Part shown: piece after piece, positions 1 to 15,050 of the stretch
Numbering within the stretch: position 1 is the stretch's first letter
How the letters are laid out: each line of letters starts with the position of its first letter
Virus record (IMG/VR): IMGVR_UViG_2713896729_000010
Span: 1 to 15,050 of that record
DNA length: 15,050 bases
Reading direction: 5' to 3' (one strand)
DNA from: a virus
Lineage: Duplodnaviria; Heunggongvirae; Uroviricota; Caudoviricetes
Position numbers and translations under genes: made by a program
Notes under the pieces: generated by a model
Database searches by the model: none
Seen by the model: only the letters and a program-made list of their open reading frames with translations
What the model was told of the DNA's origin: nothing

Positions 1-482
1 TTTTTATTTCTCTTTCAGGTGAATAGATCGTTTTTACTATTTTACCCCGCACGAATCATCGTTAAAATCAGATTATAGTGTAGGAATAACTCGTTTTTTA
101 CGAGCAATTAAAGGATTTGCGCCATCAGCGGTGAGATGAGTTTTTGACGGCTGTAAGCGCTAACGGGTGACCCTAAGCCCTGATAATCATAGCTTAAGGT
201 GAGGATTTCTGAGGGATTAATTAGGAAAAGTAATAATTAATTTCTTGTCAGTCGGCGTTATTTGTTAGGACAATATTTCAAAAATAATCCAGCTTGTCGT
301 CAATAATTGCGATAAAGAGATAAATTAAAGTTAAATAATTAAATCATTAAAAAATTACGCCACAAAAATGCGAGGCGTCTTCAGGATTAGAATCGATAAA
401 ACAGAATGGGTTAAAGAGAGCGATATAATAGCGGCGGGTGCTTGAGGCTATCTGTCTCAGGCATTAGCTGAACGGCAGATAG

Positions 483-537
483 AGAAAAGCCCCGAGTGAT
501 ATTTTACTATCAACCCGAGGCCCCCTATATGCTGAAC
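483..537 (-). ncRNA. sokC: Sok-type antisense RNA (approximate placement), antitoxin of the hok/sok type I toxin-antitoxin locus
   Basis: Placed only by analogy with the known hok/sok organisation, where the antisense RNA overlaps the mok start (here 529). No promoter or terminator was verified in the sequence, and the coordinates rest on remembered E. coli K-12 positions. Confidence 0.3.
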
Positions 538-738
538 ACATGTAGAGTGCCTCTTACTGACCGTAAGGTCAAGGAGAAGAGAGCAATGAAGCAGCATAAG
601 GCGATGATTGTCGCCCTGATCGTCATCTGTATCACCGCCGTAGTGGCGGTGCTGGTAACGAGAAAAGACCTCTGTGAGGTTCACATCCGAACTGGCCAGA
701 CGGAGGTTGCTGTTTTCACGGCTTACGAATCCGAGTAA
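529..738 (+). CDS. mokC: MokC, overlapping in-frame leader ORF that regulates hokC translation
   Basis: ATG at 529 in frame with hokC and sharing its stop; translation MLNTCRVPLTDRKVKEKRAMKQHK... The track ORF 496..738 is the same frame from an upstream GTG. Confidence 0.65.
   Translation: MLNTCRVPLTDRKVKEKRAMKQHKAMIVALIVICITAVVAVLVTRKDLCEVHIRTGQTEVAVFTAYESE
586..738 (+). CDS. hokC: Hok/Gef family small membrane toxin (50 aa)
   Basis: Translation MKQHKAMIVALIVICITAVVAVLVTRKDLCEVHIRTGQTEVAVFTAYESE matches the Hok/Gef family as I recall it: single transmembrane helix followed by the conserved RKDLCEV..RTG..EVAVF..YE motif. Confidence 0.9.
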   Translation: MKQHKAMIVALIVICITAVVAVLVTRKDLCEVHIRTGQTEVAVFTAYESE

Positions 739-818
739 GAGCAACGGCGGGGAGTGATCCCATAAGCGCTAACTTAAGGGTTGTGGTATTACGCCTGATA
801 TGATTTAACGTGCCGATG

Positions 819-828
819 NNNNNNNNNN
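819..828. other. N10 run, assembly gap or contig join
   Basis: Ten consecutive N. Flanking sequences (hok locus versus phage gpW) are not collinear in any genome I know. Confidence 0.9.
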
Positions 829-1839
<1,011 letters not shown>

Positions 1840-1915
1840 AACCCTTGCTGCGTCTGGAATGTCGTTTTCCATGCTTTTGATGACCGTTCATCACCCTTCC
1901 AGTTTTTCGCGGTTT

Positions 1916-1970
1916 TGTGTATTGCAATGTGTATTGCAAATTGGCGATCGGGATGGGTGTGTATTGCAAA
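1916..1970 (+). repeat. Three direct copies of GTGTATTGCAA, candidate integrase arm-type binding sites
   Basis: tgtgtattgcaa (1916-1927), tgtgtattgcaaa (1928-1940), gtgtgtattgcaaa (1957-1970), between the core and the int start. The same motif recurs near attR. Confidence 0.6.
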
Positions 1971-1987
1971 TCTCTTGAGGGCTTTTA

Positions 1988-3229
1988 ATGGCTATTGAAA
2001 ACAAACTCAGTGACAAACTGTTAAAGAGTCTTGTCGGAAAACGGCAGGACAAACAAAAAACAATAGCGGATGGGCGCGGGTTGTCTGTGCGTGTAAGCAT
2101 GGTTGGGGGGATCAGCTTTGTTTTTTACTATCGTCTTGGTGGCAGGGAATCCCCTCCGGTATGGCTTACACTTGGTCGCTATCCTGACATGTCTCTTGCA
2201 ACGGCCAGGCGCATGCGTGATCAGTGCCGTGAATGGCTGGCTGAAAATCTGGACCCCCGCAGGCAAATAAAACTTGCTGCCGAAAAAACTATGCAACCAG
2301 TGACCGTAAGGGATGCGCTGTTTTACTGGTACGACAATCACGCCACAACAGCCAGAAAAGAGCATGAATATTTAATAAAACGATTTGAAAAGCATATCTT
2401 CCCCTATATCGGTGATATGGCTATAGAACAGTGCAAATTACACACATGGCTTACCGTCTTTGACAGGATCAAAAAAAATGCGCCTGTTATGTCTGGTGCA
2501 ATTTTTCTTGATATCAAACAGGCGTTGCGTTTTTGTCGCGTCAGGCAATACATCGCGTGCGATCCCTTTGGAGATATTAACGTAAGTTATGTCGGGCGCT
2601 CATCCGGTATAAGGGATCGCGTTCTTAATATCAATGAAACCGCTGATGTATGGTCTTATGCTTACGGTAATAATTTGCTAACTCTGTCATCAATATATAA
2701 CCGAAGAATAATGGTTATCTGCCTGGTGTTTGGTTGCCGACAGCAGGAGGCGAGGCTATCCACCTGGGACGAATGGGATTTAAAAAACTGGGTATGGACA
2801 GTCCCAAAAGAGCACAGCAAAAACAAGGAGGCTATAGTAAGGCCTGTTCCTGACGGAATAAAACAATGGATCGTTAATCTTTACGCAGAAACAAAAAATC
2901 GCGGTTATGTTGTCGGTTGTGCTTTGCAAAGGGCGACAATAACAGGGGCTGCAAACAGAATATGCAGGCGTCTTGGTCATGATACTAATGGCTTGTGGTG
3001 CATACATGATTTCAGGCGCACATTTTCCACTACGCTTAATGATATGGGGGCGGATCCTTATATTGTCGAACTTCTTTTAGGTCATAAAGTGAAAGGGGTT
3101 GCTGGTGTTTACAATAAAAGCAGGCATATAAAGAAAAAACTTGAGGTGCTTAATATGTGGGTTAATTACCTTAATACGATAGCAGGATTTAACAACAACG
3201 TTATCGAGCTTAATAAAGAGGTGGTGTGA
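1988..3229 (+). CDS. int: Tyrosine site-specific integrase, P4-like family
   Basis: 413 aa. N-terminal arm-binding-like region (GRGLSVRVSMVGGISFVFYYRLGG...YPDMSLATARRMRDQ). C-terminal catalytic motifs CRQQEA (R), HDFRRTF (HxxR) and GVYNKS (Y nucleophile). SD gaggg 6-7 nt upstream of the ATG. Confidence 0.95.
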   Translation: MAIENKLSDKLLKSLVGKRQDKQKTIADGRGLSVRVSMVGGISFVFYYRLGGRESPPVWLTLGRYPDMSLATARRMRDQCREWLAENLDPRRQIKLAAEKTMQPVTVRDALFYWYDNHATTARKEHEYLIKRFEKHIFPYIGDMAIEQCKLHTWLTVFDRIKKNAPVMSGAIFLDIKQALRFCRVRQYIACDPFGDINVSYVGRSSGIRDRVLNINETADVWSYAYGNNLLTLSSIYNRRIMVICLVFGCRQQEARLSTWDEWDLKNWVWTVPKEHSKNKEAIVRPVPDGIKQWIVNLYAETKNRGYVVGCALQRATITGAANRICRRLGHDTNGLWCIHDFRRTFSTTLNDMGADPYIVELLLGHKVKGVAGVYNKSRHIKKKLEVLNMWVNYLNTIAGFNNNVIELNKEVV

Positions 3230-3230
3230 T

Positions 3231-3488
3231 ATGGCAATTTATTCTCTTGTTGATGAAAACGATTTGCGCACAATGAAGGACATTGATCGGTTCATTCGTG
3301 AAAAAGAGTGCATAGCACTTACCACGCTGGCAAACTCAACACGCTGGAAAATGGAGCAGGCAGGTAAATTCCCGCGACGTATCAAGATCGGTGAACGTGC
3401 TGCAGGGTATCGACTTTCAGAGGTTCAGGCATGGATCCGTGGTGAGTGGCATCCTGGATGGAAACCTGGAAAAACAAAACAGCAATAA
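3231..3488 (+). CDS. alpA: AlpA-family HTH regulator / excisionase-like protein
   Basis: 85 aa. Translation ...IALTTLANSTRWKMEQAGKFPRRIKIGERAAGYRLSEVQAWIRGEW resembles the AlpA/Vis helix-turn-helix. Start is 1 nt after the int stop, so likely translationally coupled. Confidence 0.85.
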   Translation: MAIYSLVDENDLRTMKDIDRFIREKECIALTTLANSTRWKMEQAGKFPRRIKIGERAAGYRLSEVQAWIRGEWHPGWKPGKTKQQ

Positions 3489-3501
3489 CCAGTAAATAAT
3501 G

Positions 3502-3524
3502 CCCCTCATCACGAGGGGTTTTTT
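3502..3524 (+). terminator. Rho-independent terminator after alpA
   Basis: CCCCTC-ATCAC-GAGGGG stem-loop followed by TTTTTT. Confidence 0.75.
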
Positions 3525-3544
3525 GTCTATAAGGTAAAAACGCG

Positions 3545-4123
3545 ATGAATAAAAATATTGCCGTGACGGGCAAGGGGTACGCTCGTCCAGTGAAAAAATT
3601 CTGCGATATTCGTGATCTCGTCGTTCTGCGCTTTGATAGTGTGAACGTTCGTGTGGTGTATCTGAACGGCGATCCGTGGTTTGTTGCAAAAGATGTTTGT
3701 GCTGCGCTGGAACTAACCAATTCGCGTACGGCGTTGCAGATGCTTGATGATGATGAAAAGGGAGTAAATTTAACTTACACCCCAGGAGGAAATCAGAATA
3801 TGAGAATTATCTCTGAGTCAGGTTTCTACAAACTAATAGCCCGCAGCCGCAAAGCAACGACGCCTGGCACATTTGCTCATCGTTTCAGTAACTGGGTATT
3901 CAGAAATGTGATACCAGGTATCAGAAAAACGGGGACTTATGGTATCCCGTGGGGTGCATTACAGGATTTTTCCCGCCGTAAAGAGCAATATCAAATAAGT
4001 GCCAGCGAGAAGGGGAGGGAGCTACAGGCATGTAAGCGCAAAAAGCGTGAGCTGGAGGAAGAAGAAAAAACGCTGATACGTGAATATCAGCCTGAGTTTT
4101 ACTTTGGTAACCGCATTCAGTGA
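3545..4123 (+). CDS. Bro-N domain protein (antirepressor-like), with a charged coiled-coil-like C-terminus
   Basis: 192 aa. N-terminal region VRVVYLNGDPWFVAKDVCAALELTNSRTALQMLDDDEKGV...RIISESGFYKLIARSRK fits the Bro-N fold as I recall it. C-terminus is K/E-rich (KRKKRELEEEEKTL). Confidence 0.75.
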   Translation: MNKNIAVTGKGYARPVKKFCDIRDLVVLRFDSVNVRVVYLNGDPWFVAKDVCAALELTNSRTALQMLDDDEKGVNLTYTPGGNQNMRIISESGFYKLIARSRKATTPGTFAHRFSNWVFRNVIPGIRKTGTYGIPWGALQDFSRRKEQYQISASEKGRELQACKRKKRELEEEEKTLIREYQPEFYFGNRIQ

Positions 4124-4132
4124 CAAAACAAA

Positions 4133-4153
4133 GGCGACCGCAAAAGGGTCGCC
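4133..4153 (-). terminator. Rho-independent terminator for the leftward regulator operon
   Basis: GGCGACC-gcaaaag-GGTCGCC hairpin. The T-run (tttgttttgtca) lies on the minus-strand 3' side, so it terminates leftward transcription; there is no T-run on the plus side. Confidence 0.65.
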
Positions 4154-4219
4154 AGTGGGAACAAGGGAAAACAAAAGCATCACCAACAATGCCACATTTG
4201 CGGCTGGTGGGCAATGTGA

Positions 4220-4399
4220 TCAGTCAGATTTGGTTCGTTCCAAGGTTTGCAACGAGAGCTTTTTCCTGTGCTCTTTAAGGAATTTCTCAAGAGCAAACGA
4301 ACAAGGTGCGAATCTTTCTGATTCATGTTCATGCGCTATATTTTTGCGTCGTCTCTTACGAGTTGGTGATGGTGTTTTGGTTGATTCTGTGTCGCTCAT
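4220..4399 (-). CDS. Small basic hypothetical protein (59 aa), second gene of the leftward operon
   Basis: Not in the supplied track (below its size cut-off). Hand translation MSDTESTKTPSPTRKRRRKNIAHEHESERFAPCSFALEKFLKEHRKKLSLQTLERTKSD. SD AGGA 7 nt upstream of the ATG. Lies between the 101-aa gene and the minus-strand terminator. Confidence 0.4.
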   Translation of the reverse strand: MSDTESTKTPSPTRKRRRKNIAHEHESERFAPCSFALEKFLKEHRKKLSLQTLERTKSD

Positions 4400-4456
4400 G
4401 GTGCTGTCCTGTAAAGCAATGCGCCTGCGTTCCTCAAACTATGGCGCTGATATTGG

Positions 4457-4762
4457 CTATTCATGCTCTTTGACCTTGCGTCGCTGGAGTTCTTCACGCG
4501 CGACGGTGACGAGTTGCCCGATCTCCTCGGCTGCTTTGATGCCGATTTGTTCGACCTTAGCCAGGGCATCCAGTGACGACACAAGGGGATTTTCTCCGCT
4601 GCCTTCTGCTTGGCGGCGGGCTATTTCTCCGCGCATGGCGGTTACGATAAATCCGGCATTGCTTTCACCGTCCAGCTTAACGGATTCCATCCCTTGCATA
4701 ACATCTAGTGGGACTCTGACAGTTGTCAGTTGTGATTTTGCGTTTTTGTTAGCCGTTGCCAT
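4457..4762 (-). CDS. Hypothetical protein (101 aa), candidate island repressor/regulator by position
   Basis: Strong SD AGGAG 8 nt upstream of the ATG. Divergent from the rightward early operon across a palindromic operator. No family recognised from sequence. Confidence 0.7.
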   Translation of the reverse strand: MATANKNAKSQLTTVRVPLDVMQGMESVKLDGESNAGFIVTAMRGEIARRQAEGSGENPLVSSLDALAKVEQIGIKAAEEIGQLVTVAREELQRRKVKEHE

Positions 4763-4823
4763 TTCTGAAACTCCTAATCATCGGTGTGTTTCAGTATACA
4801 CAAAAAAAGAAATACAAAAAGCC

Positions 4824-4861
4824 TTGACGTGTGTTTCATGCGCTCATAACATGAAACACAC
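4824..4861 (+). promoter_or_regulatory. Candidate sigma-70 promoter of the rightward early operon overlapped by a perfect 12-bp inverted-repeat operator
   Basis: -35 TTGACG (4824-4829), 17-bp spacer, -10 TAACAT (4847-4852). Inverted repeat GTGTGTTTCATG (4829-4840) / CATGAAACACAC (4850-4861) with 9-bp spacer. Extra half-site GTGTGTTTCAG at 4784-4794. Confidence 0.55.
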
Positions 4862-4952
4862 CGAAAGGATTGTTGAAATACAAAGAGCAACGCCCCGCAG
4901 TGCTGGGAACACATACGGGGCGTCTAACCAACAACGTAAACTAGGAGCCGTT

Positions 4953-5150
4953 ATGGTTGCTGTAAATCATATACCACACCTTGTACACACACAAACGGCC
5001 TTTGTGTGGCGTTTTCTGGCACTGAGTGCCGGAGAATCTCAAATCATCCACGTAACCGCCTGGACGGAACGCGAAGCGCGTAGCCGTTGCCCGTCCGGTT
5101 GTGTTGCTGTATTCGCTGCAAAAATCCGCCAGGGAGTGAGTCATGCTTAA
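4953..5150 (+). CDS. Hypothetical small protein (65 aa), first gene of the rightward early operon
   Basis: SD AGGAG (4944-4948) 4 nt before the ATG. Translation MVAVNHIPHLVHTQTAFVWRFLALSAGESQIIHVTAWTEREARSRCPSGCVAVFAAKIRQGVSHA. This is the C-terminal part of the track's 4080..5150 ORF, which I reject as a whole. Confidence 0.55.
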   Translation: MVAVNHIPHLVHTQTAFVWRFLALSAGESQIIHVTAWTEREARSRCPSGCVAVFAAKIRQGVSHA

Positions 5151-5328
5151 AACCTTCCGTGTATTTGCCCGAGCTGTTAACCCAATAGGCCACACAATTG
5201 GTATCGCTCAGAATGTGAAGGCTGTTAATGTTCAGACGGCTATTGCTGCGGTGAGAAGCGAATCATCAGAATATGGCTTATCACAAGTCATTATTTCAGC
5301 AGTGTATGAATTAAAAGAGGTGCATTAA
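5143..5328 (+). CDS. Hypothetical small protein (61 aa)
   Basis: Start overlaps the upstream stop (ATGCTTAA); SD gggag upstream. Confidence 0.5.
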   Translation: MLKTFRVFARAVNPIGHTIGIAQNVKAVNVQTAIAAVRSESSEYGLSQVIISAVYELKEVH

Positions 5329-5519
5329 TGCAGGAAATTACATTACACGAAGCCGCTGAACGTGCGCACCAGACAGAAATTATTTGCCGCCTTCTTGAGG
5401 TATACCCGAACAAAATTACAGATGCTGATATATCCGCACTGGCGAGCCTACTGGCGCGTCTTTCGGGAAGTGTCGCTAGTTTTTTGATTGAGGAAGAAAG
5501 TAAGCTGGTGGGGGATTAA
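5328..5519 (+). CDS. Hypothetical small acidic protein (63 aa)
   Basis: TAATG stop/start overlap with the upstream gene; SD aagagg upstream. Confidence 0.55.
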   Translation: MQEITLHEAAERAHQTEIICRLLEVYPNKITDADISALASLLARLSGSVASFLIEEESKLVGD

Positions 5520-5741
5520 ATGAATACAGAACGGGAAGTCTTTTTTAAATTGTTAGCATGTGCAGAAAGTTCATTAACTTTAAATAATTCAGCAAAAGCA
5601 ATATTAAATATGTGGCTTGATTGCATAAATGACAATGAAGATGCAAATATTGCTTATGGCCTGTTGTCACTTATTGATGAATCAGCAGAAAAACTCAATG
5701 ACGCAATAAATAGTGCCCTGCTATCAAATAAGTCGAGTTAA
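5520..5741 (+). CDS. Hypothetical small acidic protein (73 aa) in an AT-rich segment
   Basis: TAAATG overlap with the upstream gene. Local base composition is visibly AT-richer than its neighbours, suggesting a recently acquired cargo gene. Confidence 0.5.
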   Translation: MNTEREVFFKLLACAESSLTLNNSAKAILNMWLDCINDNEDANIAYGLLSLIDESAEKLNDAINSALLSNKSS

Positions 5742-5758
5742 GTCGAGGAATAAATAAT

Positions 5759-6058
5759 ATGGAAATGAAAAATTCTGGCTTTATTGCCAGCGGCCCCGCT
5801 CGACCTGAATTTATGAACGGCGATATTTACCGCGATAAATACGGCGGCACGGTAACGATTAAAGGCGTGGCAGAACGGCGCATCACTTACCGCCGTGAGG
5901 GGTATAGCTATGACTGCGTGATGCCTGTTTATCAGTTCCGGCGTGATTTTCCCCTGGTATATGCCGCACCCCGCAGTAAGCCCATCAGCAGGGAAAAAGC
6001 GTGGGGAAATATCCAGAAAATGAAAACCATGATTAACGGATTCAGAGGTAAAAAATGA
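5759..6058 (+). CDS. Hypothetical protein (99 aa), translationally coupled to the helicase gene
   Basis: SD gagga upstream. Stop overlaps the helicase start (ATGA at 6055-6058). Confidence 0.6.
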   Translation: MEMKNSGFIASGPARPEFMNGDIYRDKYGGTVTIKGVAERRITYRREGYSYDCVMPVYQFRRDFPLVYAAPRSKPISREKAWGNIQKMKTMINGFRGKK

Positions 6059-7809
6059 AACTGGCACCGAACGTAAAACAGCAGTCACGCGGCATAAAAC
6101 ACAAAGGAACAGAAGTCATTATTTTTGCGGGTAGTGATGCCTGGGCACACGCGAAACAATGGCAGGAACATGATGCGCGTATGGCCGGAGATAATGAGCC
6201 TCCTGTGTGGCTTGGGGAGCAGCAGCTATCCGAACTGGATAATCTGCAAATTGTGCCGGAAGGCCGAAAATCAGCACGCATATACAGGGCCGGATATCTT
6301 GCGCCTGTAATGATAAAGGCGATTGGTCAGAAGCTGGCGGCAGCAGGCGTACAGGATGCAAATTTTTATCCTGAGGGTATGCACGGCCAGGAGGTGCAGA
6401 ACTGGCGCGAATATCTGGCCCGTGAACGCCAGAATCTTTCTGATGGTCTGGTCATTGAGCTTCCGGTAAAGCAAAAGGCGCAACTTTCGCAGATGGCGGA
6501 CAGTGAGCGCGCGCAGTTGCTTGCCGATCGCTTTGATGGCGTTTGCGTACATCCTGAAAGTGAAATCGTTCACGTATGGCGCGGCGGGGTATGGTGTCCG
6601 GTCAGCACAATGGAACTTAGCCGCGAAATGGTGGCGATCTATTCAGAGCACAGGGCCACTTTCAGCAAGCGCGTAATCAATAACGCCGTGGAAGCGTTAA
6701 AAGTTATTGCCGAACCAATGGGCGAGCCGTCTGGCGATTTGCTGCCGTTCGCCAATGGTGCGCTTGACCTGAAAACGGGGGAATTTTCCCCGCACACGCC
6801 GGAGAACTGGATCACCACGCACAACGGCATTGAGTACACGCCACCAGCACCAGGGGAGAACATCCGCGATAACGCGCCAAACTTTCATAAATGGCTTGAG
6901 CACGCAGCCGGAAAAGACCCGCGCAAGATGATGCGTATATGTGCCGCGCTGTACATGATTATGGCGAACCGGTACGACTGGCAGATGTTTATTGAGGCCA
7001 CCGGAGACGGCGGGAGCGGTAAAAGTACATTCACACACATAGCCAGCCTTCTGGCAGGGAAACAGAACACGGTAAGCGCTGAAATGACATCGCTTGATGA
7101 TGCTGGTGGACGTGCGCAGGTTGTCGGGAGTCGTCTTATCGTCCTGGCTGACCAGCCGAAATATACAGGCGAAGGAACGGGCATCAAGAAAATCACAGGC
7201 GGCGACCCCGTGGAAATTAACCCGAAATATGAAAAGCGTTTCACGGCGGTAATCAGGGCGGTGGTGCTGGCGACCAACAACAACCCGATGATATTCACCG
7301 AACGGGCCGGAGGTGTGGCACGTCGTCGCGTGATTTTCCGTTTCGACAATATCGTCAGTGAGGCCGAAAAAGACAGGGAGCTACCGGAAAAGATTGCGGC
7401 TGAAATCCCCGTTATTATCCGCCGATTGCTGGCGAACTTTACCGACCCTGAGAAGGCACGGGCTTTACTACTGGAACAGCGTGACGGTGATGAAGCACTG
7501 GCAATAAAGCAACAGACGGATCCGGTTATTGAGTTTTGCCAGTTCCTGAATTTTCTGGAGGAAGCGCGCGGCCTGATGATGGGTGGCGGTGGTGATTCAG
7601 TGAAGTACACGACCAGGAACAGCCTTTACCGCGTCTATCTGGCGTTTATGGCATACGCGGGCAGGAGCAAACCGCTAAACGTGGCTGAGTTCAGCAAGGC
7701 CATGAAGCCAGCGGCGAAAGTTTACGGGCATGAATATATTACGCGAAAAGTTAAGGGAGTAACGCAGACCAACGCAATTACAACAGACGATTGCGACGCG
7801 TTTTTATAA
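6055..7809 (+). CDS. Replication initiator / SF3 helicase (D5_N-like domain plus NTPase, resembling the P4 alpha C-terminal half); no clear primase motif seen in the N-terminus
   Basis: 584 aa. Walker A GDGGSGKST and Walker B-like LIVLADQ. The conserved region before the NTPase resembles the D5_N / P4-family C-terminal domain. Iteron origin immediately downstream. Confidence 0.88.
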   Translation: MKLAPNVKQQSRGIKHKGTEVIIFAGSDAWAHAKQWQEHDARMAGDNEPPVWLGEQQLSELDNLQIVPEGRKSARIYRAGYLAPVMIKAIGQKLAAAGVQDANFYPEGMHGQEVQNWREYLARERQNLSDGLVIELPVKQKAQLSQMADSERAQLLADRFDGVCVHPESEIVHVWRGGVWCPVSTMELSREMVAIYSEHRATFSKRVINNAVEALKVIAEPMGEPSGDLLPFANGALDLKTGEFSPHTPENWITTHNGIEYTPPAPGENIRDNAPNFHKWLEHAAGKDPRKMMRICAALYMIMANRYDWQMFIEATGDGGSGKSTFTHIASLLAGKQNTVSAEMTSLDDAGGRAQVVGSRLIVLADQPKYTGEGTGIKKITGGDPVEINPKYEKRFTAVIRAVVLATNNNPMIFTERAGGVARRRVIFRFDNIVSEAEKDRELPEKIAAEIPVIIRRLLANFTDPEKARALLLEQRDGDEALAIKQQTDPVIEFCQFLNFLEEARGLMMGGGGDSVKYTTRNSLYRVYLAFMAYAGRSKPLNVAEFSKAMKPAAKVYGHEYITRKVKGVTQTNAITTDDCDAFL

Positions 7810-7824
7810 TTTTTTGTAAAAGCC

Positions 7825-8042
7825 ATCTACCCCATCTACCTGAACAAAATAAACGCATATTATTCAACATGATAAGTGGGTATAGGGCTAGGTAGAAGGC
7901 TAATAAAAGCTCTCTACCTCTTCTACCTGATTTTATCAGTTTCAGGTAGCAGGGTAGACGGCAGGTAGAGGAGTCAAAAAGCTATCTACCCGCTGAAAGC
8001 CGCGCCATTACTGACATGATGAGCATTCGGGTAGATGGGTAG
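7825..8042. repeat. Iteron-type replication origin: at least 11 copies of GGTAG / CTACC arranged as inverted clusters
   Basis: ccatctaccccatctacc (7823-7840); ggtag at 7891, 7945, 7953, 7964, 8030, 8038; ctacc at 7914, 7923, 7986. Terminal clusters are mutual reverse complements (catctacc / ggtagatg). Lies directly after the initiator gene. Confidence 0.8.
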
Positions 8043-8157
8043 AGGGGGGGAGGCACAACTAAAAACTTTTTAAACGAGGGGGGGGTGAAAATAAATGCGC
8101 ATACATAAAAATCACTTAATAAACATGCCAGCCGAAAACATGAATCAGGGGCGACAA

Positions 8158-8409
8158 ATGACCAAAATTCGCAGAGACAGAACACAGGCAAAATATAAAG
8201 CGTTAGACATGACAGAGCTTTCCTTAAAGGTGGCAATCAAAGCGATAGACCACCACACACGGGCAGGATACGCGAAGGAACATCCCGACCTGATAAGCGC
8301 ATTCATGACCACAGCAGCGGCAAACTTTGCCACGCTGACAGAACGGGAGATTGCCGAAGCGGAACAGGTGACAACCATCAATGTTAAAACCGGAGAGCAG
8401 ACAGCATGA
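8158..8409 (+). CDS. Hypothetical protein (84 aa; start uncertain, alternative starts at 8139 or 8095)
   Basis: SD agggg 6 nt before ATG 8158. Stop overlaps the SSB-like gene start (ATGA at 8406). Confidence 0.55.
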   Translation: MTKIRRDRTQAKYKALDMTELSLKVAIKAIDHHTRAGYAKEHPDLISAFMTTAAANFATLTEREIAEAEQVTTINVKTGEQTA

Positions 8410-8855
8410 CAGCACAGATAGCGGCTTACGGGCGGCTGGTGGCTGACCCGCAGTTAAAGACCACCAGCAAAGGGACACAAATGGCGATGGCGAGTATGGC
8501 GGTTCCCCTGCCGTGCAGCCAGGCAGATGACGGAACGGCGACGATGTGGTTATCCGTCCTGGCGTTTGGCAGACAGGCCGACGCACTGGCAAAACACCAC
8601 AAAGGCGAACTGGTGAGCGTGGCGGGTAACATGCAGGTAAGCCAGTGGACAGGCCAGAACGGCGAAACGCGGCGGGGCTGGCAGGTTATCGCAGACAGCG
8701 TAATCAGTGCGCGAACGGCGCGACCGGGCGGCAAAAAAGGCCAACAGGGGCAGGCTACTGACGAACTGAACAGAGCAAAACAACAGGCAGATCAGCAAGG
8801 AAGCCAGCCACCAGTGGGAGATAATGAGCAATGGGGAGATGATATCCCGTTTTAA
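8406..8855 (+). CDS. ssb: Single-stranded DNA-binding protein homologue with SSB-like acidic C-terminal tip
   Basis: 149 aa. OB-fold-like N-terminus (GRLVADPQLKTTSKGTQMAMASMAV...WLSVLAFGRQADALAKHHKGELVSVAGNMQVSQW), Gly/Gln-rich linker, and C-terminus ...WGDDIPF resembling the DDDIPF tip of bacterial SSB. Confidence 0.8.
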   Translation: MTAQIAAYGRLVADPQLKTTSKGTQMAMASMAVPLPCSQADDGTATMWLSVLAFGRQADALAKHHKGELVSVAGNMQVSQWTGQNGETRRGWQVIADSVISARTARPGGKKGQQGQATDELNRAKQQADQQGSQPPVGDNEQWGDDIPF

Positions 8856-8873
8856 ATATTGCCAATAAAAAAG

Positions 8874-8897
8874 GCCGGAAAAAATAAATTTTCCGGC
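8874..8897 (+). other. Perfect hairpin between the replication and capsid modules
   Basis: GCCGGAAAA-aataaa-TTTTCCGGC, 9-bp stem. No T-run after it, so not a canonical terminator on the plus strand. Confidence 0.5.
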
Positions 8898-9071
8898 ATG
8901 CTACATAAATCCCGACCAAAGGGAGTGAAGATATTAACACTAATTGTCCGCACTGAAGTTGTCACCCCAAAACTTTATACAACATTGCACTCGGTTGCAT
9001 GTGTTCGCATGACAAATATCGGTGGTAGCATATATCCACAATTATTTTTAATGAATGCAAAGAGGATGCGT

Positions 9072-10112
9072 ATGGTTGATTTATATTCGCCTACTCAGCT
9101 TGTACAGGTGGTTAATGCTGTAGATGTACAAAAACAACTAAATGCGTTGTTTACCAGTTTGTTTTTTACTCGCTCGGTAATGTTTGAATCGCGCGATATT
9201 ATTCTTGATACAATCGACGATCCAAATATCCCAATTGCAGCGTTTTGTTCTCCTATGGTGGGTAGTAAAGTTTCACGTGACGAAGGGTACGAATCAAAAA
9301 CAATTCGTCCAGGCTATATGAAGCCGAAAAGCAGCATTGATCCAAATAAGTTAGCTGTGCGCCCTGCTGGTGTATCACCTGAGCAATACAATGCTTTTGG
9401 GGCACGTAATATTAAAGTTAAACAGGCGATTGTAAATCAGGCTAAAGCTATTCGTGCACGTATTGAATGGCTTGCTGTTCAGGCAATCACAACGGGGAAA
9501 AATATCATTGAGGGCGATGGTATTGAACGTTATGAGCTGGACTGGAATATAAAACCACAAAATATCATCACTCAGTCTGGCGGTACTGAGTGGTCAGGTA
9601 AGGATAAAGAAACTTTTGATCCAAATGATGATATTGAGAGCTACGCAGAATTTAGTGAGGGCGTCACTAATATCATCATTATGGGTGGTAATGTATGGAA
9701 GAAATACCGTTCATTCAGAGCGATAAAAGAGGCTTTGGATACCCGTCGTGGTTCTAATTCCGAACTGGAAACGGCCCTTAAAGACCTTGGTGATTCGGTG
9801 AGTTTTAAAGGGTATATGGGCGATGTTGCGATTGTTGTTTACAGCGGGCGTTATACCGACGAGGACGGAACAGAAAAACATTTCCTTGATCCTGATTTGA
9901 TGGTGCTTGGCAATACGGCTCTTCAGGGGATTGTCGCCTATGGCGGTATTCAGGATCCGGAGCTAATCCGAATGGGGCTGACTAAAGCCGAACTTGCACC
10001 GAAAAACTATATTGTGCCTGGTGATCCGGCTATTGAATATGTGCAGACACATTCAGCACCACAGCCAATACCGGCCCGCATCAATCGTTTTGTTACCGTT
10101 CGCATTGGCTAA
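9072..10112 (+). CDS. Major capsid protein, homologue of lambda gpE
   Basis: 346 aa from ATG 9072 (SD aagagg 8 nt upstream). Collinear similarity to lambda E as I recall it: N-terminus MVDLYSPTQL versus MSMYTTAQL; NIITQSGGTEWSGKDKETFDPNDDIESYA versus NITQSGGTEWSKRDKSTYDPTDDIEAYA; LDTRRGSNSELETALKDLG...GDVAIVVYSG nearly identical. The track ORF starts at an upstream TTG (8859), which I reject. Confidence 0.9.
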   Translation: MVDLYSPTQLVQVVNAVDVQKQLNALFTSLFFTRSVMFESRDIILDTIDDPNIPIAAFCSPMVGSKVSRDEGYESKTIRPGYMKPKSSIDPNKLAVRPAGVSPEQYNAFGARNIKVKQAIVNQAKAIRARIEWLAVQAITTGKNIIEGDGIERYELDWNIKPQNIITQSGGTEWSGKDKETFDPNDDIESYAEFSEGVTNIIIMGGNVWKKYRSFRAIKEALDTRRGSNSELETALKDLGDSVSFKGYMGDVAIVVYSGRYTDEDGTEKHFLDPDLMVLGNTALQGIVAYGGIQDPELIRMGLTKAELAPKNYIVPGDPAIEYVQTHSAPQPIPARINRFVTVRIG

Positions 10113-10121
10113 GGGGGAGCA

Positions 10122-10463
10122 ATGGCTACTCATTACACTGAACTCATGGCTGGCACTGAAGCACTGGTGACTACGCTGGGGATATTTTCAGCTAATAAAG
10201 GGGTAATTCCTGCATTTACGCCACTGATGCAGGAAGATGCAACAGGTGCACTGGTGGTATGGGATGGTTCGAGCGTAGGTAAAGCGGTTTATGTTTCCGC
10301 TGTACAAATCGACACAGCGAAAAAAACACAGGCACAGGTTTATAAGACAGGTGTTTTAAATGTTGATGCTCTGAACTGGCCTGAGTCTGTAAAAGAACTG
10401 TCGGCAAAGGTTGCCGCGTTTGTTGGCTCAGGTATTTCTGTTCAGCCGCTGGCTCGTGTGTAA
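10122..10463 (+). CDS. Head decoration protein, homologue of lambda gpD
   Basis: 113 aa, SD gggggag. Similar to lambda D as I recall it: TPLM..D....LVVWDG...YK.G......WPE......AF.G..IS. Confidence 0.85.
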   Translation: MATHYTELMAGTEALVTTLGIFSANKGVIPAFTPLMQEDATGALVVWDGSSVGKAVYVSAVQIDTAKKTQAQVYKTGVLNVDALNWPESVKELSAKVAAFVGSGISVQPLARV

Positions 10464-10474
10464 AGGGGGATACA

Positions 10475-10858
10475 ATGCAGAATCATTACAATGACCTTAA
10501 GCCAATTGCCGAAATGATGTATCCGGATCCAGCAGTAGAGGAATTAAAGGCTATTGCTGACAAAATGCGTTTAAGTGAACGCCTTGTTGATATGAATCAG
10601 GTGATGGAACTTACTACCCTTAGCCGTCGCACATTGCTAAACCTTGAGGCTAGTGGAGAGTTCCCGGAGCGTGTGCAGGTTACGGAAGGGCGTAAGGCCT
10701 GGTATTTAAGTGAAGTGATCGACTGGATAAACAATATTCCTCGATCTTCTGAATATTGCCGCGTACCTGTCCCAAAAAAGCCAGATGCGGCGCTATGCCT
10801 CAAGATTGAGCGTGTACGTCGCAATGCACGGGATGGTCGCTATAAGTTGATTGGTTGA
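10475..10858 (+). CDS. Second AlpA-family HTH protein (127 aa, with an N-terminal extension), immediately upstream of cos
   Basis: SD aaggggga. Translation ...MELTTLSRRTLLNLEASGEFPERVQVTEGRKAWYLSEVIDWIN is an AlpA-like helix-turn-helix. Confidence 0.7.
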   Translation: MQNHYNDLKPIAEMMYPDPAVEELKAIADKMRLSERLVDMNQVMELTTLSRRTLLNLEASGEFPERVQVTEGRKAWYLSEVIDWINNIPRSSEYCRVPVPKKPDAALCLKIERVRRNARDGRYKLIG

Positions 10859-10884
10859 TGAAATTAGGGCCCGTTCTGGCTGGC

Positions 10885-10948
10885 GGGTCCTTTCCGGCGA
10901 TCCGGTAGGCTACGGGGCGGCGACCTCGCGGGTTTTCGCTATTTATGA
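10885..10948 (+). other. cos site: lambda-type cosN (12-nt cohesive-end sequence GGGCGGCGACCT at 10915-10926) with lambda-like flanks
   Basis: gggtcctttccggcgatccggtaggctacg|GGGCGGCGACCT|cgcgggttttcgctatttatga agrees almost base for base with the lambda cos junction as I recall it. Sequence downstream (10949-11059), where cosB would be, is unlike lambda. Confidence 0.85.
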
Positions 10949-11059
10949 GCCTTTTTCGGGTGCTGGTGGTGGTTTTGTTGTTCGCTCTATCTCTATGAAT
11001 AAAAAGGAAAAGATAAAGCCAATACACCAACCTGAAACATTACTTAAGTGGGGATATTG

Positions 11060-11530
11060 ATGAAATCGCACCTGATGAACAAAAAAAACATGGCGCAAAG
11101 CTGCCGTGTAAGTGCGACAGCGTTCGACAAGTGGGGAGTGACTCCCGTTGAACGTAAAGGCCGCGAGGCGTTTTATGATGTTGCCAGCGTAATAGACAAT
11201 CGGGTTAGCAATGCAATTAACCAGATTACAGACGACAAAGGCGAGATTGATGATGATGAACTCCTACGAGTCAGGATCAGATTGCTGACAGCACAGGCAG
11301 AGGCGCAGGAGCTTAAAAACGAGCGCGAACGCGGCGACGTTATTGATACAGCGTTTTGTATATACGTGCTTTCAAAATTGGCGAGTCAGATTTCTTCAAT
11401 CATGGACAGCCTGCCGCTTGCCATGACAAGGAAGTTTCCCGACATGAAGCCGTCTATGCTGGATGGACTGAAAAAGAAGTTATCAGAGCCTGTAACGCAT
11501 GCGCAAAACTTGACGAAAACATACCGCTGA
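11060..11530 (+). CDS. Terminase small subunit, homologue of lambda Nu1; the C-terminal Nu1-like segment continues in the -1 frame to 11601
   Basis: N-terminal ..NKKNMAQSCRVSATAFDKWGV aligns with the Nu1 N-terminus (NKKQLADIFGASIRTIQNWQEQG). Central block LTAQAEAQELKNERERGDVIDTAFCIYVLSKLASQISSIMDSLPLAMTRKFP is nearly collinear with Nu1 (LTRAQADAQELKNARDSAEVVETAFCTFVLSRIAGEIASILDGLPLSVQRRFP). Start could also be 11075 or 11090. Confidence 0.85.
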   Translation: MKSHLMNKKNMAQSCRVSATAFDKWGVTPVERKGREAFYDVASVIDNRVSNAINQITDDKGEIDDDELLRVRIRLLTAQAEAQELKNERERGDVIDTAFCIYVLSKLASQISSIMDSLPLAMTRKFPDMKPSMLDGLKKKLSEPVTHAQNLTKTYR

Positions 11531-11612
11531 TGCTGTCCGATTATCTGATGGAAACTGCCGGAAACGTACCGGATAAGTTGCAGCCGAATAAAGATAAGTA
11601 ACGTAGTACGCT

Positions 11613-11894
11613 ATGACTGAATCCGAAATACTGCGATTAATCCGCCGTGCTTGTGGAATCAGCAAGCAGCATGACGAACAGGCCACGCAGCCGGACAGCG
11701 TGACCGCAGATAATTATGTGCGTGTAGTGGCTGAGGTGATGCGCCGTGACGGTATTGAGCTTAACGGCGTGGATATGCGCAACATACGAACAAGAGTCCT
11801 TGAGTTGCTGGCATATCGTCGCCGTTCTCAACAACGGAGGGAGAGCGCGAAAAATACTTACCAGTGGAAGAAGCCGGAACGATTGCGGCGGTAA
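11613..11894 (+). CDS. Hypothetical basic protein (93 aa) downstream of the small terminase gene
   Basis: ORF with Arg-rich C-terminus (RRRSQQRRESAKNTYQWKKPERLRR). Weak SD and no recognisable family. Confidence 0.45.
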   Translation: MTESEILRLIRRACGISKQHDEQATQPDSVTADNYVRVVAEVMRRDGIELNGVDMRNIRTRVLELLAYRRRSQQRRESAKNTYQWKKPERLRR

Positions 11895-12146
11895 CTTGCT
11901 GATATTCCCGATAACGCAAAATTGCGCTGGCTGACTTGTTGCATTGCAAAAAGTTAAGCAGGAAGGCACGGCCTGTAAGATGGGATGCAGTAAGTAGTTC
12001 AAGGCTACCTTGTGCTGGCACGCACAGTTAAGCCGTCGGTGCTGGATATCCCCCACTGGGGGAAAAGCTGGCTACATCCCTCACATCTGAGGACTGATAA
12101 CGCGACATTGCGCTGGCTGGCAAAGTGCAAAATTGCACGATGGCCT

Positions 12147-12290
12147 AACCCATTGATTATTTCGAAAACCTGCAATGCAGGAAATCGGGGAAGTAAGCCT
12201 AAGCTATTGATTGTTTCGAAAACCCCCATTGGGGGATGTCGGGAAAGTAAGACTAACCCATTGATTCTTCCACAATCCTCAATTTGAGGA
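12147..12290. repeat. Tandem ~54-bp repeat, 2.7 copies, each with a different 13-bp palindrome
   Basis: Conserved unit (C/G)C(C/T)ATTGATT.TT.C.A.AA.CC followed by cctgcaAtgcagg (12169-12181), cccccaTTggggg (12223-12235) and cctcaaTttgagg (12277-12289). Confidence 0.75.
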
Positions 12291-12608
12291 GGCCGGAACG
12301 TCTACATAGCTGCATCGCCGTAATGATGATTCAGCCCACCAGCCAAATCAGCACAGCAACGACAGAATAGCCCGACACAGAAAAACCACGAATATGGGGT
12401 TTTTGTTATGACATGGTCATGATGACCACTCATACAAAACAGGTAAAGCCCACCAGCCTGATTAAAGGTTAACCGGAAAAAAGCCAGGTATCCAATCTCG
12501 ATATGGGGATCCCTATATCGACATTAACGCCCACTAAAACTGTGCATATATGCATAGAAAAAGCATCCACCAGCTTTATGACGGATGCCGCTCATCTTAT
12601 AAATAATC

Positions 12609-12630
12609 GTGTATTGCAGTGTGTATTGCG
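12609..12630 (+). repeat. Two further direct copies of the GTGTATTGC(A/G) arm-type motif near attR
   Basis: gtgtattgca (12609-12618) and gtgtattgcg (12621-12630), about 75-95 bp from the right core, same orientation as the three copies near attL. Confidence 0.6.
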
Positions 12631-12703
12631 ACTCCTTTAAACGATAGGTCTGAGCATTCGTAATGTACTGTTTTTAAATTTTATTTTTTCCTGTCTTTTC
12701 ATA

Positions 12704-12716
12704 AAGGCGATGTATG
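12704..12716. repeat. attR core (right copy of the 13-bp direct repeat)
   Basis: AAGGCGATGTATG; phage-identical sequence continues rightward (gtatgccgccaccattgag). Confidence 0.8.
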
Positions 12717-12933
12717 CCGCCACCATTGAGAGTGAGCTGGATACGCAGTCAGCGATGGATTTTATTCTGGGCGCGAACAGTCAGGAGCAGCGGGAAAGGC
12801 TGACCGGCTGGATTGGTGAAATTGCCGCGTATTACGCCGCAGCGCCGGTCCGGCTGGGAGGCGCAAAAGTACCGCACCTGATGCCGGGGGACTCACTGAA
12901 CCTGCAGACGGCTCAGGACACGGATAACGGCTA
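12704..12933 (+). CDS. B: lambda-type portal protein B, continuation after the island (truncated at the N10 gap)
   Basis: In frame from the core: KAMYAATIESELDTQSAMDFILGANSQEQRERLTGWIGEIAAYYAAAPVRLGGAKVPHLMPGDSLNLQTAQDTDNG, matching the region of lambda B that follows ...QSAIVKA. Confidence 0.9.
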
Positions 12934-12943
12934 NNNNNNNNNN
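12934..12943. other. N10 run, assembly gap or contig join
   Basis: Ten N; flanks are portal gene versus a glutamate decarboxylase fragment. Confidence 0.9.
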
Positions 12944-13063
12944 ATCGGCCTGGAATTTATCCAGCGCATCGTGCAGCGGTTGTGGGAACTCATAGTTACC
13001 AGTGTAGGTCACGCCGAAAGTCGGCACCACGCCGATGGTGTTTTCGTCACAGGCTTCAATCAT
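12944..13063 (-). CDS. Internal 40-codon fragment of glutamate decarboxylase (GadA/GadB-like), isolated between two N10 runs
   Basis: Minus-strand translation [40 protein letters not shown] matches an internal segment of E. coli Gad as I recall it. Confidence 0.6.
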
Positions 13064-13073
13064 NNNNNNNNNN
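13064..13073. other. N10 run, assembly gap or contig join
   Basis: Ten N. Confidence 0.9.
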
Positions 13074-13673
<600 letters not shown>

Positions 13674-13683
13674 NNNNNNNNNN
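13674..13683. other. N10 run, assembly gap or contig join
   Basis: Ten N; the J frame does not continue across it. Confidence 0.9.
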
Positions 13684-15050
13684 ATAACGCGTCCGCAGTG
13701 GCACAGAACACGGCAGCCGCAAAGAAGTCAGCCAGCGATGCCGGCACATCTGCCCGTGAGGCGGCAACCCATGCAACCGATGCTGCAGGCTCAGCACGTG
13801 CCGCCAGCACGTCAGCCGGACAGGCTGCATCATCTGCTCAGTCAGCATCTTCCAGCGCAGGAACGGCATCAACAAAGGCCACTGAAGCATTAAAAAGTGC
13901 TGCCGCTGCAGAGTCCTCAAAAAGCGCGGCAGCCACCAGTGCCGGTGCGGCGAAAACGTCAGAAACGAATGCCGCAGCATCACAACTATCAGCAGCCACT
14001 TCTGCATCCACCGCGACCACGAAGGCGTCAGAAGCTGCCACCTCAGCCCGGGATGCGGCGGCCTCAAAAGAGGCAGCGAAATCATCAGAAACGAACGCAT
14101 CATCAAGTGCCAGTAGTGCAGCTTCCTCGGCAACGGCGGCAGGAAATTCCGCGAAGGCCGCAAAAACGTCTGAGACGAATGCGGATAACAGCGCACAGGC
14201 GGCAGCAGACTCACAAACTGCATCGGCAAACTCCGCGACAGCCGCCAAAAAATCAGAAACCAACGCGAAAAATAGCGAGGCAGCAGCAAAGAGCAGCGAA
14301 ACAAACGCTAAAGCCAGCGAAACTAATGCTAAATCCAGTGAAACAAACGCGGCGAAATCTGCGGCGGACGCACTTAATTATCGCAACCATGCTCAGGGTA
14401 TTGTTGGTGCTAACATCGGTTTGGGATCATCACCGCGCAATTGTCCTGATATTTCCGGTGATCCATCCGGTTATATTGGCTTTATGCGCATTTTTGCTTC
14501 CGCAACAGGTTTTCCGTCTATTGCATCAGGCGAAGGTAATCTTACTGGTTTTATTAGTCAGGTAGATGGAACACCAGCGTATACAGGTGTATTTCAGGGA
14601 TGGACTACTCGCTCGCTTTATACCTATCGCTGGAGTCCGACAATAGGCCCGCAATGGACACGCCACGCTCGCAAAAATGAAGTGGACCGTCTTGACCAAT
14701 TGAATAGCGAAACATGGTTATATAACCATGATAAATCCATGCGCCTGGGTTTAACCGCCTCATCATGGGGTTGTTACAGCGATACACAAAAAAAATGGAT
14801 ACCGCTTGATGTTTCTCATGGTGGCACTGGCGCGGCAACTATTGATGGTGCCAGAACTAATCTTGGATTAGGCAGGGATAACAGCCCTCAGCTTAATAGT
14901 CTATTTCTCGATAGGACTAGTGATTCTACTGGCGCATACACTACTGGCGGGATGCTCCATACGAGACTGTTAGCAAATGATAACACTGTGCGCCTTGCCG
15001 CTGATATGTATGTTCAGACTTTTCCAAATGAGCAAGGTCGATTAACAATA
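13684..15050 (+). CDS. stf: Side tail fiber protein (lambda Stf family), partial at both ends, with an Ala/Ser-rich SETNA repeat region
   Basis: Open frame (codons from 13686) with no stop to the window end. Repeats AKTSETNAAAS, AKSSETNASSS, AKTSETNADNS, KKSETNAKNS, KSSETNAKASETNAKSSETNAAKS, then a globular region (..NYRNHAQGIVGANIGLGSSPRNCPDISGDPSGYIGF...). Not in the track because it lacks a start and stop inside the window. Confidence 0.85.

Follow-up and report, generated by a model that had tools for sequence, protein, structure and literature searches.

The 15,050-nucleotide stretch analysed here (the window; positions 1 to 15,050 of the IMG/VR record IMGVR_UViG_2713896729_000010) carries a phage-inducible chromosomal island (PICI) lodged in a lambda-like prophage, within its portal gene. 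This island encodes its own major capsid protein (E; 9072 to 10112, plus strand), of the lambda gpE family, followed by its own head decoration protein (D; 10122 to 10463, plus strand), of the lambda gpD / phage 21 SHP family. We regard the assignment of the two genes and their placement in the island as practically certain. The gene pair, the type of island and its location inside a helper gene are all already known from published work. What our analysis adds is that the PICI E proteins form a clade separate from phage E, that no sequenced phage exceeds 43% identity to the window E, that both genes are under purifying selection, and that the order E then D is kept in nine of nine PICI loci. 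The explanation that in our opinion accounts best for these data, and that we hold, as a whole, to be somewhat probable, is that of a conserved PICI capsid-decoration module working as a redundant, full-size shell-and-cement module on the helper portal and scaffold.

The E gene starts with ATG, encodes 346 residues and has AGAGGA 6 nt upstream of its start, whereas the D gene encodes 113 residues and is preceded by GGGGGAG; both motifs are purine-rich, in agreement with the strong Shine-Dalgarno sequences read in an earlier inspection of the bare sequence (the first-pass annotation). E matches Pfam Phage_cap_E (PF03864) with residues 12-343 on profile positions 4-327 of 329 (E-value 1.1e-41; 143.4 bits for a cutoff of 22.9) and PHROG 29 'major head protein' (2e-89). 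Matches to solved structures are those with PDB entry 3BQW (2.7e-121) and with lambda gpE 7VI9 (4.7e-77, residues 12-345 on 8-340). Its AlphaFold model, with a predicted template-modelling score (pTM) of 0.78, gives template-modelling (TM) scores of 0.85 to 3BQW and 0.80-0.82 to lambda gpE. A full-length match above the cutoff combined with an HK97 fold places E in the gpE family. In the same way D matches Pfam HDPD (PF02924; 4.1e-15, 56.4 bits for a cutoff of 29.1), PHROG 49 'head decoration' (6e-26), and the structures of phage 21 SHP (1TD0, 3.8e-16) and lambda gpD (7.9e-12). Its model (pTM 0.73) reaches TM scores of 0.81-0.85 to SHP and gpD, and a match above the cutoff with the gpD fold makes it a member of the gpD/SHP family, known for attaching to expanded capsids as trimers and stabilising them. 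The homology of the two proteins to gpE and gpD, first proposed from the letters alone, is thus borne out by profiles, structure matches and predicted folds alike.

The order of the two genes, E then D, is opposite to the lambda-type order, D then E, seen in the helper prophage (locus L001, 19940-20272 and 20328-21353), as the first-pass annotation had noticed. The window proteins are 42% (E) and 38% (D) identical to their helper counterparts. Pfam and PHROGs scans of all island open reading frames (ORFs) detected no homologue of B, C, Nu3, A, FI, FII, the large terminase or any tail gene, so that the reported lack of portal, scaffold, protease and tail genes stands. The stop codon of E and the start of D lie in the same frame, 9 nt apart (10110-10124), and one protein, P0005 (463 residues, both Pfam domains), is as long as a read-through fusion of E and D would be (346 + 4 + 113). 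Since this spacing is not conserved in other PICIs, it is probably incidental.

The closest described system is EcCICFT073, the model Gram-negative PICI, reported in 2018 with the capsid gene c1499 and the head decoration gene c1500 (Fillol-Salom et al., PMC6092414). The window E and D are 55% and 54% identical to the products of these genes, of which they are the counterparts, and the crystal structure 3BQW is that of the capsid protein of CFT073, whose sequence agrees with c1499 in the alignments shown. In both islands E precedes D, after pri-ssb and before the packaging genes; the int-alpA-pri layout is the same, the island size is similar, and the last island gene is 76% identical. A major capsid gene is moreover present in 21 of the 29 reference Gram-negative PICIs, of which it is the commonest late gene (PMC10111431). 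A satellite supplying only E and D, suggested as a distinct strategy, is consequently not new. The two islands differ in several respects. EcCICFT073 is chromosomal, between roxA and phoQ, and its integrase is 40% identical to that of the window island, which sits in a prophage portal gene; it packages via RppA, whereas the window island has a small terminase (TerS) of Nu1 type; and it possesses a 68-aa ORF abutting E, without equivalent in the window.

They also differ in what follows D, which in EcCICFT073 is a gene whose 137-aa product shows a weak C-terminal match to Nu3/protease and in the window a gene of the AlpA family. The 137-aa gene (L003 15084-15497) has a match to PHROG 53 'head maturation protease' (1e-8), at the C-terminal end of that family, and its product aligns weakly (E-value 0.001) with the C-terminal part of an S49 C-type protease encoded in a Lelliottia PICI integrated at fis, where the full protease gene (L009 11409-12752) follows E-D. 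In lambda, the nested scaffold gene Nu3 lies in the C-terminal part of the C protease gene. From these alignments, some PICIs may carry a scaffold or a protease in addition to E and D. For the window gene after D, a scaffold identity like that considered for the 137-aa protein was rejected, as there is no similarity between them.

The element is a PICI of the helper-embedded class (HE-PICI), which interrupts the portal gene near codon 241 and is co-oriented with the helper late operon. The contig carrying it begins at the end of a lambdoid W-like gene, followed by the 5' part of the helper portal gene, the lambda B cognate (958 to 1792, plus strand), which the island interrupts. The stretch 958-1839 corresponds to positions 2-242 of the 354 of Pfam Phage_portal_2 (6.9e-64), and RefSeq labels the same 5' sequence 'phage portal protein, missing C-terminus'. 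The attL core AAGGCGATtTATG (1780 to 1792) is a 13-mer repeated with one mismatch as the attR core AAGGCGATgTATG (12704 to 12716), the two being written jointly as AAGGCGAT(T/G)TATG. When 958-1792 is joined to 12717-12933, a single uninterrupted portal reading frame is restored; this 3' continuation (12717 to 12933, plus strand) runs to the contig end, and the sequence from 12710 onward matches profile positions 238-304 weakly, under the family cutoff. Between the cores the island measures 10,924 bp, close to the 11 kb initially estimated.

The window itself is a chain of joined contigs, with runs of ten N at 819-828, 12934-12943, 13064-13073 and 13674-13683, and only 829-12933 is contiguous sequence carrying the island. 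Neighbouring sequence on the other contigs (hok/sok, J-protein fragments) is for this reason uninformative on the surroundings of the island. The same island is found, in a portal gene split into two pseudogene halves, in 37 complete Escherichia coli genomes, with 98.9-99.8% identity among the matches listed. Nu1, A and W lie upstream in these copies, and C, D, E, FI, FII and tail genes downstream. Given this shared arrangement in complete genomes, an assembly artefact is unlikely as the source of the portal halves or of the similarity to c1499/c1500. The contig joins and the placement inside a lambdoid portal gene, as well as the cos site and the Nu1-type TerS described below, had escaped the first-pass annotation.

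Residence inside a prophage late gene, co-orientation, precise att cores and a target gene that is not replaced are the marks of HE-PICIs, of which 491 have been mapped to 14 sites in lambda late-gene cognates, including B:Phage_portal_2:241 (Tommasini, Mageeney and Williams, PMC10111431). With Eco567.11capE and the B:Phage_portal_2:241 group the window island shares its co-oriented position in a lambdoid late gene, the lack of any sequence replacing the target gene, a layout in four zones (integration, Bro, replication, late), a capsid gene of its own and GTGTATTGC repeats near both ends, whereas 11capE sits in gene E and the window island in gene B. The island also answers to the description of a classical Gram-negative PICI (a size of about 10-20 kb; an inward int at the left end, alpA, and a primase or replication gene with an ori region), on the basis of its 10,924 bp and its int, alpA, primase and single-strand DNA-binding protein (SSB) genes. 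In all its ORFs, scanned with Pfam and PHROGs, there are no lysis or tail genes and the set of head genes is incomplete, and it combines a helper cos with its own packaging-specificity factor, the TerS, frameshifted in the window copy.

Satellites of other types also encode shell components. Capsid-forming PICIs (cf-PICIs), such as EcCIEDL933, are likewise int-alpA-rep satellites encoding an HK97-fold capsid protein (Alqurainy et al., bioRxiv 10.1101/2022.09.08.507074), and their capsid proteins are likewise phylogenetically apart from phage homologues (bioRxiv 10.1101/2022.09.08.507074). They encode in addition, as the first-pass annotation stated for portal and terminase, a portal, a protease, head-tail connectors, an HNH protein, TerS and the large terminase TerL, and make small, PICI-sized capsids (bioRxiv 10.1101/2022.09.08.507074). 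Portal, protease, connectors and TerL are all absent between the att cores of the window island, which is accordingly not a cf-PICI. SaPIbov5, with its Ccm protein, and PmCI172 offer another parallel, that of a lone capsid homologue in a satellite otherwise reliant on helper head proteins. Ccm, 23% identical to the helper capsid protein, redirects capsid size, unlike the EcCICFT073 module, with which packaged DNA is phage-sized and deletion has no effect; in the portion of the source available to us, no decoration gene is mentioned as accompanying Ccm. In the case of P4, the satellite-encoded protein is Psu, which stabilises P4 heads. Psu is described as a satellite-encoded capsid building block or decoration (PMC11718236). 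It is unrelated to gpD in sequence and in fold, and P4 encodes no capsid protein, its Sid making small heads from helper gpN.

Both E and D are intact and under strong purifying selection. Compared with an 85%-identical E. coli allele, E has a nonsynonymous substitution rate (dN) of 0.097 and a synonymous rate (dS) of 1.04, thus a dN/dS of 0.094, and for D the ratio is 0.079. The nine PICI copies examined, which come from six genera (Escherichia, Serratia, Edwardsiella, Salmonella, Lelliottia and Cedecea), are all full length, with E of 343-351 and D of 110-113 residues and always in the order E then D, and D divergence tracks E divergence across them. In complete E. coli genomes the allele group of the window is found in about 7% (395 of 5426).

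The relation to phages is distant. A search of 50,697 phage genomes gave 437 matching records, none of them more than 43% identical to the window E, the best being lambda with 42.3%. In a large protein collection, homologues of E are either 50-99% identical or 43% and less, with a gap between. Neighbour-joining of 107 full-length sequences separated PICI-type from phage-type E in 200 of 200 bootstraps once a chimeric protein, P0043, had been removed; the initial tree that included it recovered this split in only 3 of 100. P0043, from an ENA metagenome contig of 4432 nt, is lambda-like helper E over its first ~240 residues, while its last ~105 residues, taken as four windows of 30 residues, match the window PICI E in three of them and in the remaining one at 25 positions out of 30. 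The junction is close to a segment that both clades conserve, and may result from natural recombination between helper and satellite or from an assembly chimera. By these comparisons, PICI E-D forms a satellite-associated lineage apart from all sequenced phage E and D genes, and the pair is not a recent capture from helpers. HE-PICI capsid genes are treated in PMC10111431 as captured helper late genes, whereas the window E, 42% identical to helper E, belongs to an old and separate lineage.

Conservation is unevenly distributed along E. Residues 173-262 are largely common to PICI and phage proteins, whereas segments 56-70, 129-143 and 318-332 are conserved within each clade and different between clades. 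In the model, the first falls in a low-confidence stretch (56-73), the second at the end of a long helix (110-141) and the third in C-terminal strands; we read them as E-loop, spine helix and P-domain, respectively. In HK97-fold proteins these elements meet the neighbouring subunits and, at threefold positions, the cement protein. The clade-specific segments would thus lie at subunit and cement contacts.

While the pair itself is kept, its surroundings change. Every PICI-type E whose context was read lies inside a PICI with D directly downstream, yet these islands are integrated in the portal gene, in the E gene, in a contractile-tail gene cluster, at fis or at other chromosomal sites, and replicate with a D5-type primase, a DUF927 or an AAA_25 protein. 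What follows D is an AlpA-family gene with a Nu1-type TerS, an Rpp gene, a C-type protease gene, a TIR gene, or nothing. Between the window island and the Edwardsiella island of the same portal site, integrases are 88% and E proteins 59% identical, which argues for exchange of the module among island backbones. One such island, in Salmonella (L006, GCA_005980655.1), is an E-D-AlpA PICI among contractile-tail genes (baseplate, tail fibre, tube), and the helper of the Cedecea island (L010) joins lambda-type head genes with a contractile tail.

Downstream of the module, the island carries its own cos site (10883 to 10960, plus strand; GGGCGGCGACCT at 10915), recognised by alignment with the helper cos region (L001 3220-3500). 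The two are near-perfectly alike over about 70 nt (cosQ/cosN) and then diverge on the cosB side. This cos lies directly upstream of the island Nu1-type TerS gene (11060 to 11601, plus strand), mirroring the cos-Nu1 arrangement of lambda. The Pfam Phage_Nu1 match (9.5e-22) covers the C-terminal half only, PHROG 57 is matched at 7e-42, and it is mainly in its C-terminal half that the protein resembles helper Nu1, as would be expected of a TerS guiding the large subunit of the helper to another cosB. An identity as Rpp, expected by analogy with EcCICFT073 for the packaging gene after the module, was discarded, since BLASTP found no similarity to RppA. In the assembly the gene is frameshifted: the A-run at 11471-11475 has five A, while intact 180-aa versions (L001, L007) have six, and the 1-nt deletion replaces the last ~40 residues, those that align with the C-terminal part of helper Nu1. 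This could be a real inactivation or a homopolymer sequencing error.

How the module may act can be proposed from this gene content and from the relatives. The pair would be expressed late, either from the promoter-like element upstream of E (8979-9031, described below) or by read-through of the island from late helper transcripts under Q antitermination. On portal, protease and scaffold of the helper, PICI E would form full-size (T=7-type) shells, which cognate PICI D would cement after expansion. Helper gpA, directed by the island Nu1-type TerS, would cut island DNA at the island cos, and packaging would proceed as head-full multimers, four island copies amounting to 43.7 kb, about 90% of lambda. 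At about 90% filling, lambda needs a D-type cement. For the assembly step taken by itself, that is, PICI E shells on helper portal and scaffold cemented by PICI D, we see the chances as slightly short of balanced. Under laboratory conditions the module would be redundant with helper E and D, which would explain the null deletion phenotypes of EcCICFT073; selection on it would presumably come from other helpers, from a limiting or disabled supply of helper shells, or from competition.

Published experiments bear directly on this proposal. EcCICFT073 undergoes helper-induced excision, replication and high-frequency transfer and interferes with its helper (PMC6092414), and excision and replication have been demonstrated for 11capE (Tommasini et al. 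2023, PMC10111431). With lambda as helper, all DNA packaged in the presence of EcCICFT073 was phage-sized; deletion of c1499 or c1500 did not restore lambda plaques, and island transfer by the resident prophages was unaffected by these deletions (PMC6092414). In 2019, a plasmid screen of the EcCICFT073 genes after ori found that only c1503, encoding RppA, inhibited lambda (PMC6739421), the other genes inhibiting neither lambda, phage 80 nor HK97 when expressed (PMC6739421). Our literature search on c1499/c1500 and on the function of PICI capsid and decoration genes returned, apart from the papers of 2018, 2019 and 2023, only a review, that of Dokland, which agrees on phage-sized packaged DNA and on deletions without effect in EcCICFT073.

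Several of these observations, and others of our own, weigh against the redundant shell-and-cement module. Loss of c1499 or c1500 had no consequence for transfer or interference, and the post-ori genes, c1503 apart, did not inhibit lambda. The presence of PICI E or D in particles is presumed, and so, with only 42% identity between PICI and helper E, is the use of helper scaffold and portal. The window island has no scaffold-like gene, while the Lelliottia island has a C-type protease and EcCICFT073 a possible Nu3-like remnant; the module could need a scaffold of its own. The domain assignment of the clade-specific E segments is derived from a model of the monomer, in which the putative E-loop has low confidence. 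Finally, the frameshifted TerS may mean that the window copy is defective, unless the missing A is a homopolymer error.

Other explanations of the pair have to be considered against the same data. Along the lines suggested in the first-pass annotation, the island capsid protein, alone or mixed with helper E, could build smaller capsids that hold one or two island genomes and keep out that of the helper, or could capture portals and scaffold at the expense of the helper. An island of only 10.9 kb is in keeping with such a role, for which SaPIbov5 Ccm, making small isometric capsids, and PmCI172, with its capsid homologue and small capsids, provide precedents; besides, a Nu1-type TerS in place of Rpp means that EcCICFT073 is not an identical test case. 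In this closest tested relative, however, all packaged DNA was phage-sized and neither interference nor transfer changed on deletion of c1499 or c1500, a conclusion in which the review of Dokland concurs. Transfer insensitive to loss of the capsid gene, the very outcome that the first-pass annotation had named as speaking against its proposal, has thus been obtained for c1499 (PMC6092414). The E model is moreover a complete HK97 fold superposable on lambda gpE, without obvious truncation, and the head of lambda can accommodate four island copies (43.7 kb). Size redirection or out-competition seems unlikely to us. A second proposal, made in PMC10111431, is that the genes are a back-up: an intact copy would stand in for a helper late gene that the embedded island disables or delays, until the island excises. 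It draws strength from the commonest HE-PICI site, which lies inside helper gene E (201 of 491; PMC10111431), and from the E-D module carried by two islands so placed (L008, L010). The window island, though, interrupts B and carries no B, leaving E and D untouched; chromosomal PICIs without any interrupted phage gene, namely EcCICFT073, L007 and the two at fis (L004, L009), carry the module as well; and PICI E, 42% identical and in a separate clade, is no recent helper copy. We therefore give a back-up role little credit.

A non-structural role could also be imagined, the proteins acting as regulators, decoys or anti-phage factors, for example by poisoning the heads of non-helper lambdoid phages or by modulating a capsid-sensing defence. 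PICIs often carry interference or defence functions in this region, a TIR gene adjoins the module in the Cedecea island, and the null phenotypes were recorded with no phages other than lambda, phage 80 and the CFT073 resident prophages. Nevertheless E and D retain the complete length and fold of a functional shell and a functional cement protein, and lambda, phage 80 and HK97 were not inhibited by expression of EcCICFT073 genes apart from c1503. A decoy would hardly account for the joint retention of a cement protein. D would have no obvious use unless shells of cognate E are filled with DNA; we favour a structural role and judge a non-structural one improbable. As to decaying remnants of captured phage late genes, devoid of present function, the null deletions, the frameshift in the neighbouring TerS and the PICI late zone, described as dynamic (PMC10111431), would fit them. 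Yet dN/dS is 0.08-0.09 at dS up to 1.0, nine PICI copies are intact in six genera, E-D order and adjacency are kept while the surroundings are exchanged, and there is no close phage donor, so that we consider decay very improbable.

The remaining features complete the picture of the island. Near attL lie three copies of GTGTATTGC (1917 to 1967, plus strand), with two more at 12609 and 12621, which are probably binding sites for the recombinase or for AlpA. HE-PICIs are reported to carry, uniquely, a 'doubled DNA motif' flanking the attP core (Tommasini et al. 2023, PMC10111431), with which we infer that these repeats correspond. The tyrosine integrase (1988 to 3229, plus strand; Pfam Arm-DNA-bind_3, Phage_int_M and Phage_integrase) shares, in pairwise comparison, 88% identity with that of the Edwardsiella island from this portal site, 54% with that of an E-site HE-PICI and 40% with that of EcCICFT073. 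HE-PICI integrases form an 11capE-related clade whose subclades follow the integration site (PMC10111431), a pattern that these pairwise identities would fit. Adjoining int is alpA, for the excisionase/activator AlpA (3231 to 3488, plus strand; Pfam Phage_AlpA 5.4e-14), followed by a gene for a Bro-N domain protein (3545 to 4123, plus strand; Pfam Bro-N 4.9e-20; PHROG 2593 anti-repressor, 3.8e-85). Between this and the primase are small conserved genes and a DUF4222 gene. In this interval, a 356-aa ORF (4080-5150) is probably spurious, as similarity to a known family (Icd-like; PHROG 29966 and 1743) is confined to its final 65 codons (4953-5150); RefSeq annotates that part only, and a conserved gene occupies the opposite strand at 4457-4762.

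The primase/helicase gene (6055 to 7809, plus strand; Pfam D5_N, DUF5906 and Pox_D5; PHROG 864 DNA primase, 2e-175) is separated by a small conserved ORF from the SSB gene (8406 to 8855, plus strand; Pfam SSB 6.4e-16). A hairpin after ssb (8874-8897) was rejected as a plus-strand terminator, its T-run being on the minus strand only. In the interval upstream of E, a consensus scan gave no match to a canonical sigma-70 promoter. Alignment reveals there, about 40 nt from E, a conserved promoter-like element (8979 to 9031, plus strand) consisting of ACAACATTGCAC, TTGCATG and an extended -10-like TGGTAGCAT, shared with divergent islands of E. coli (L007), Cedecea (L010) and Serratia (L004), TGnTAnnAT being present in all four; from this conservation we propose it as a candidate activator-dependent promoter. 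Its ATTGCA core recurs in the GTGTATTGC repeats near the att sites.

Directly 3' of D, the gene mentioned above encodes a second AlpA-family protein (10475 to 10858, plus strand; Pfam Phage_AlpA 1.1e-08; PHROG 2790, 2e-48), and an AlpA-family gene occupies the same position in L004, L006, L007, L008 and L010. The last island gene (11613 to 11894, plus strand) encodes the conserved 93-aa protein shared with EcCICFT073 (PHROG 1561, 1.2e-55). The right end consists of ~800 bp of non-coding DNA up to attR, in which there are three tandem 54-nt repeats (12143-12304; 80% and 61% identical to the first), each with a short hairpin. With gathering thresholds, an Rfam scan detected no RNA in the island, and in particular no C4 or isrK immunity RNA. 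Its sole match was sok (122 bits), on the unrelated contig to the left of the island contig, where a hok/sok toxin-antitoxin locus lies at 436-738 with a Hok ORF at 496-738 (Pfam HOK_GEF 1.2e-23).

Beyond the redundant module itself, a broader interpretation is possible, which we put forward only tentatively: satellites with E-D would be an intermediate grade between classical PICIs, which steal whole heads, and cf-PICIs, which steal only tails. Equally tentative is its mechanistic content, in which such a satellite would supply shell and cement only, obtain satellite-specific full-size heads on a stolen portal, scaffold, protease and large terminase, and benefit from them with other helpers or under other conditions. 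Compatible with this interpretation are the age of the lineage and its lack of phage members, the strength of purifying selection and the obligatory retention of D together with E, as well as the published null phenotypes, which concern transfer and interference and not particle composition. The puzzle is that a shell-and-cement pair without detectable laboratory phenotype has been retained in at least six enterobacterial genera while the neighbouring modules are swapped. An explanation of this retention would clarify how far satellites substitute single parts of the helper virion, and would show whether 'classical' and 'capsid-forming' PICIs are the ends of a continuum.

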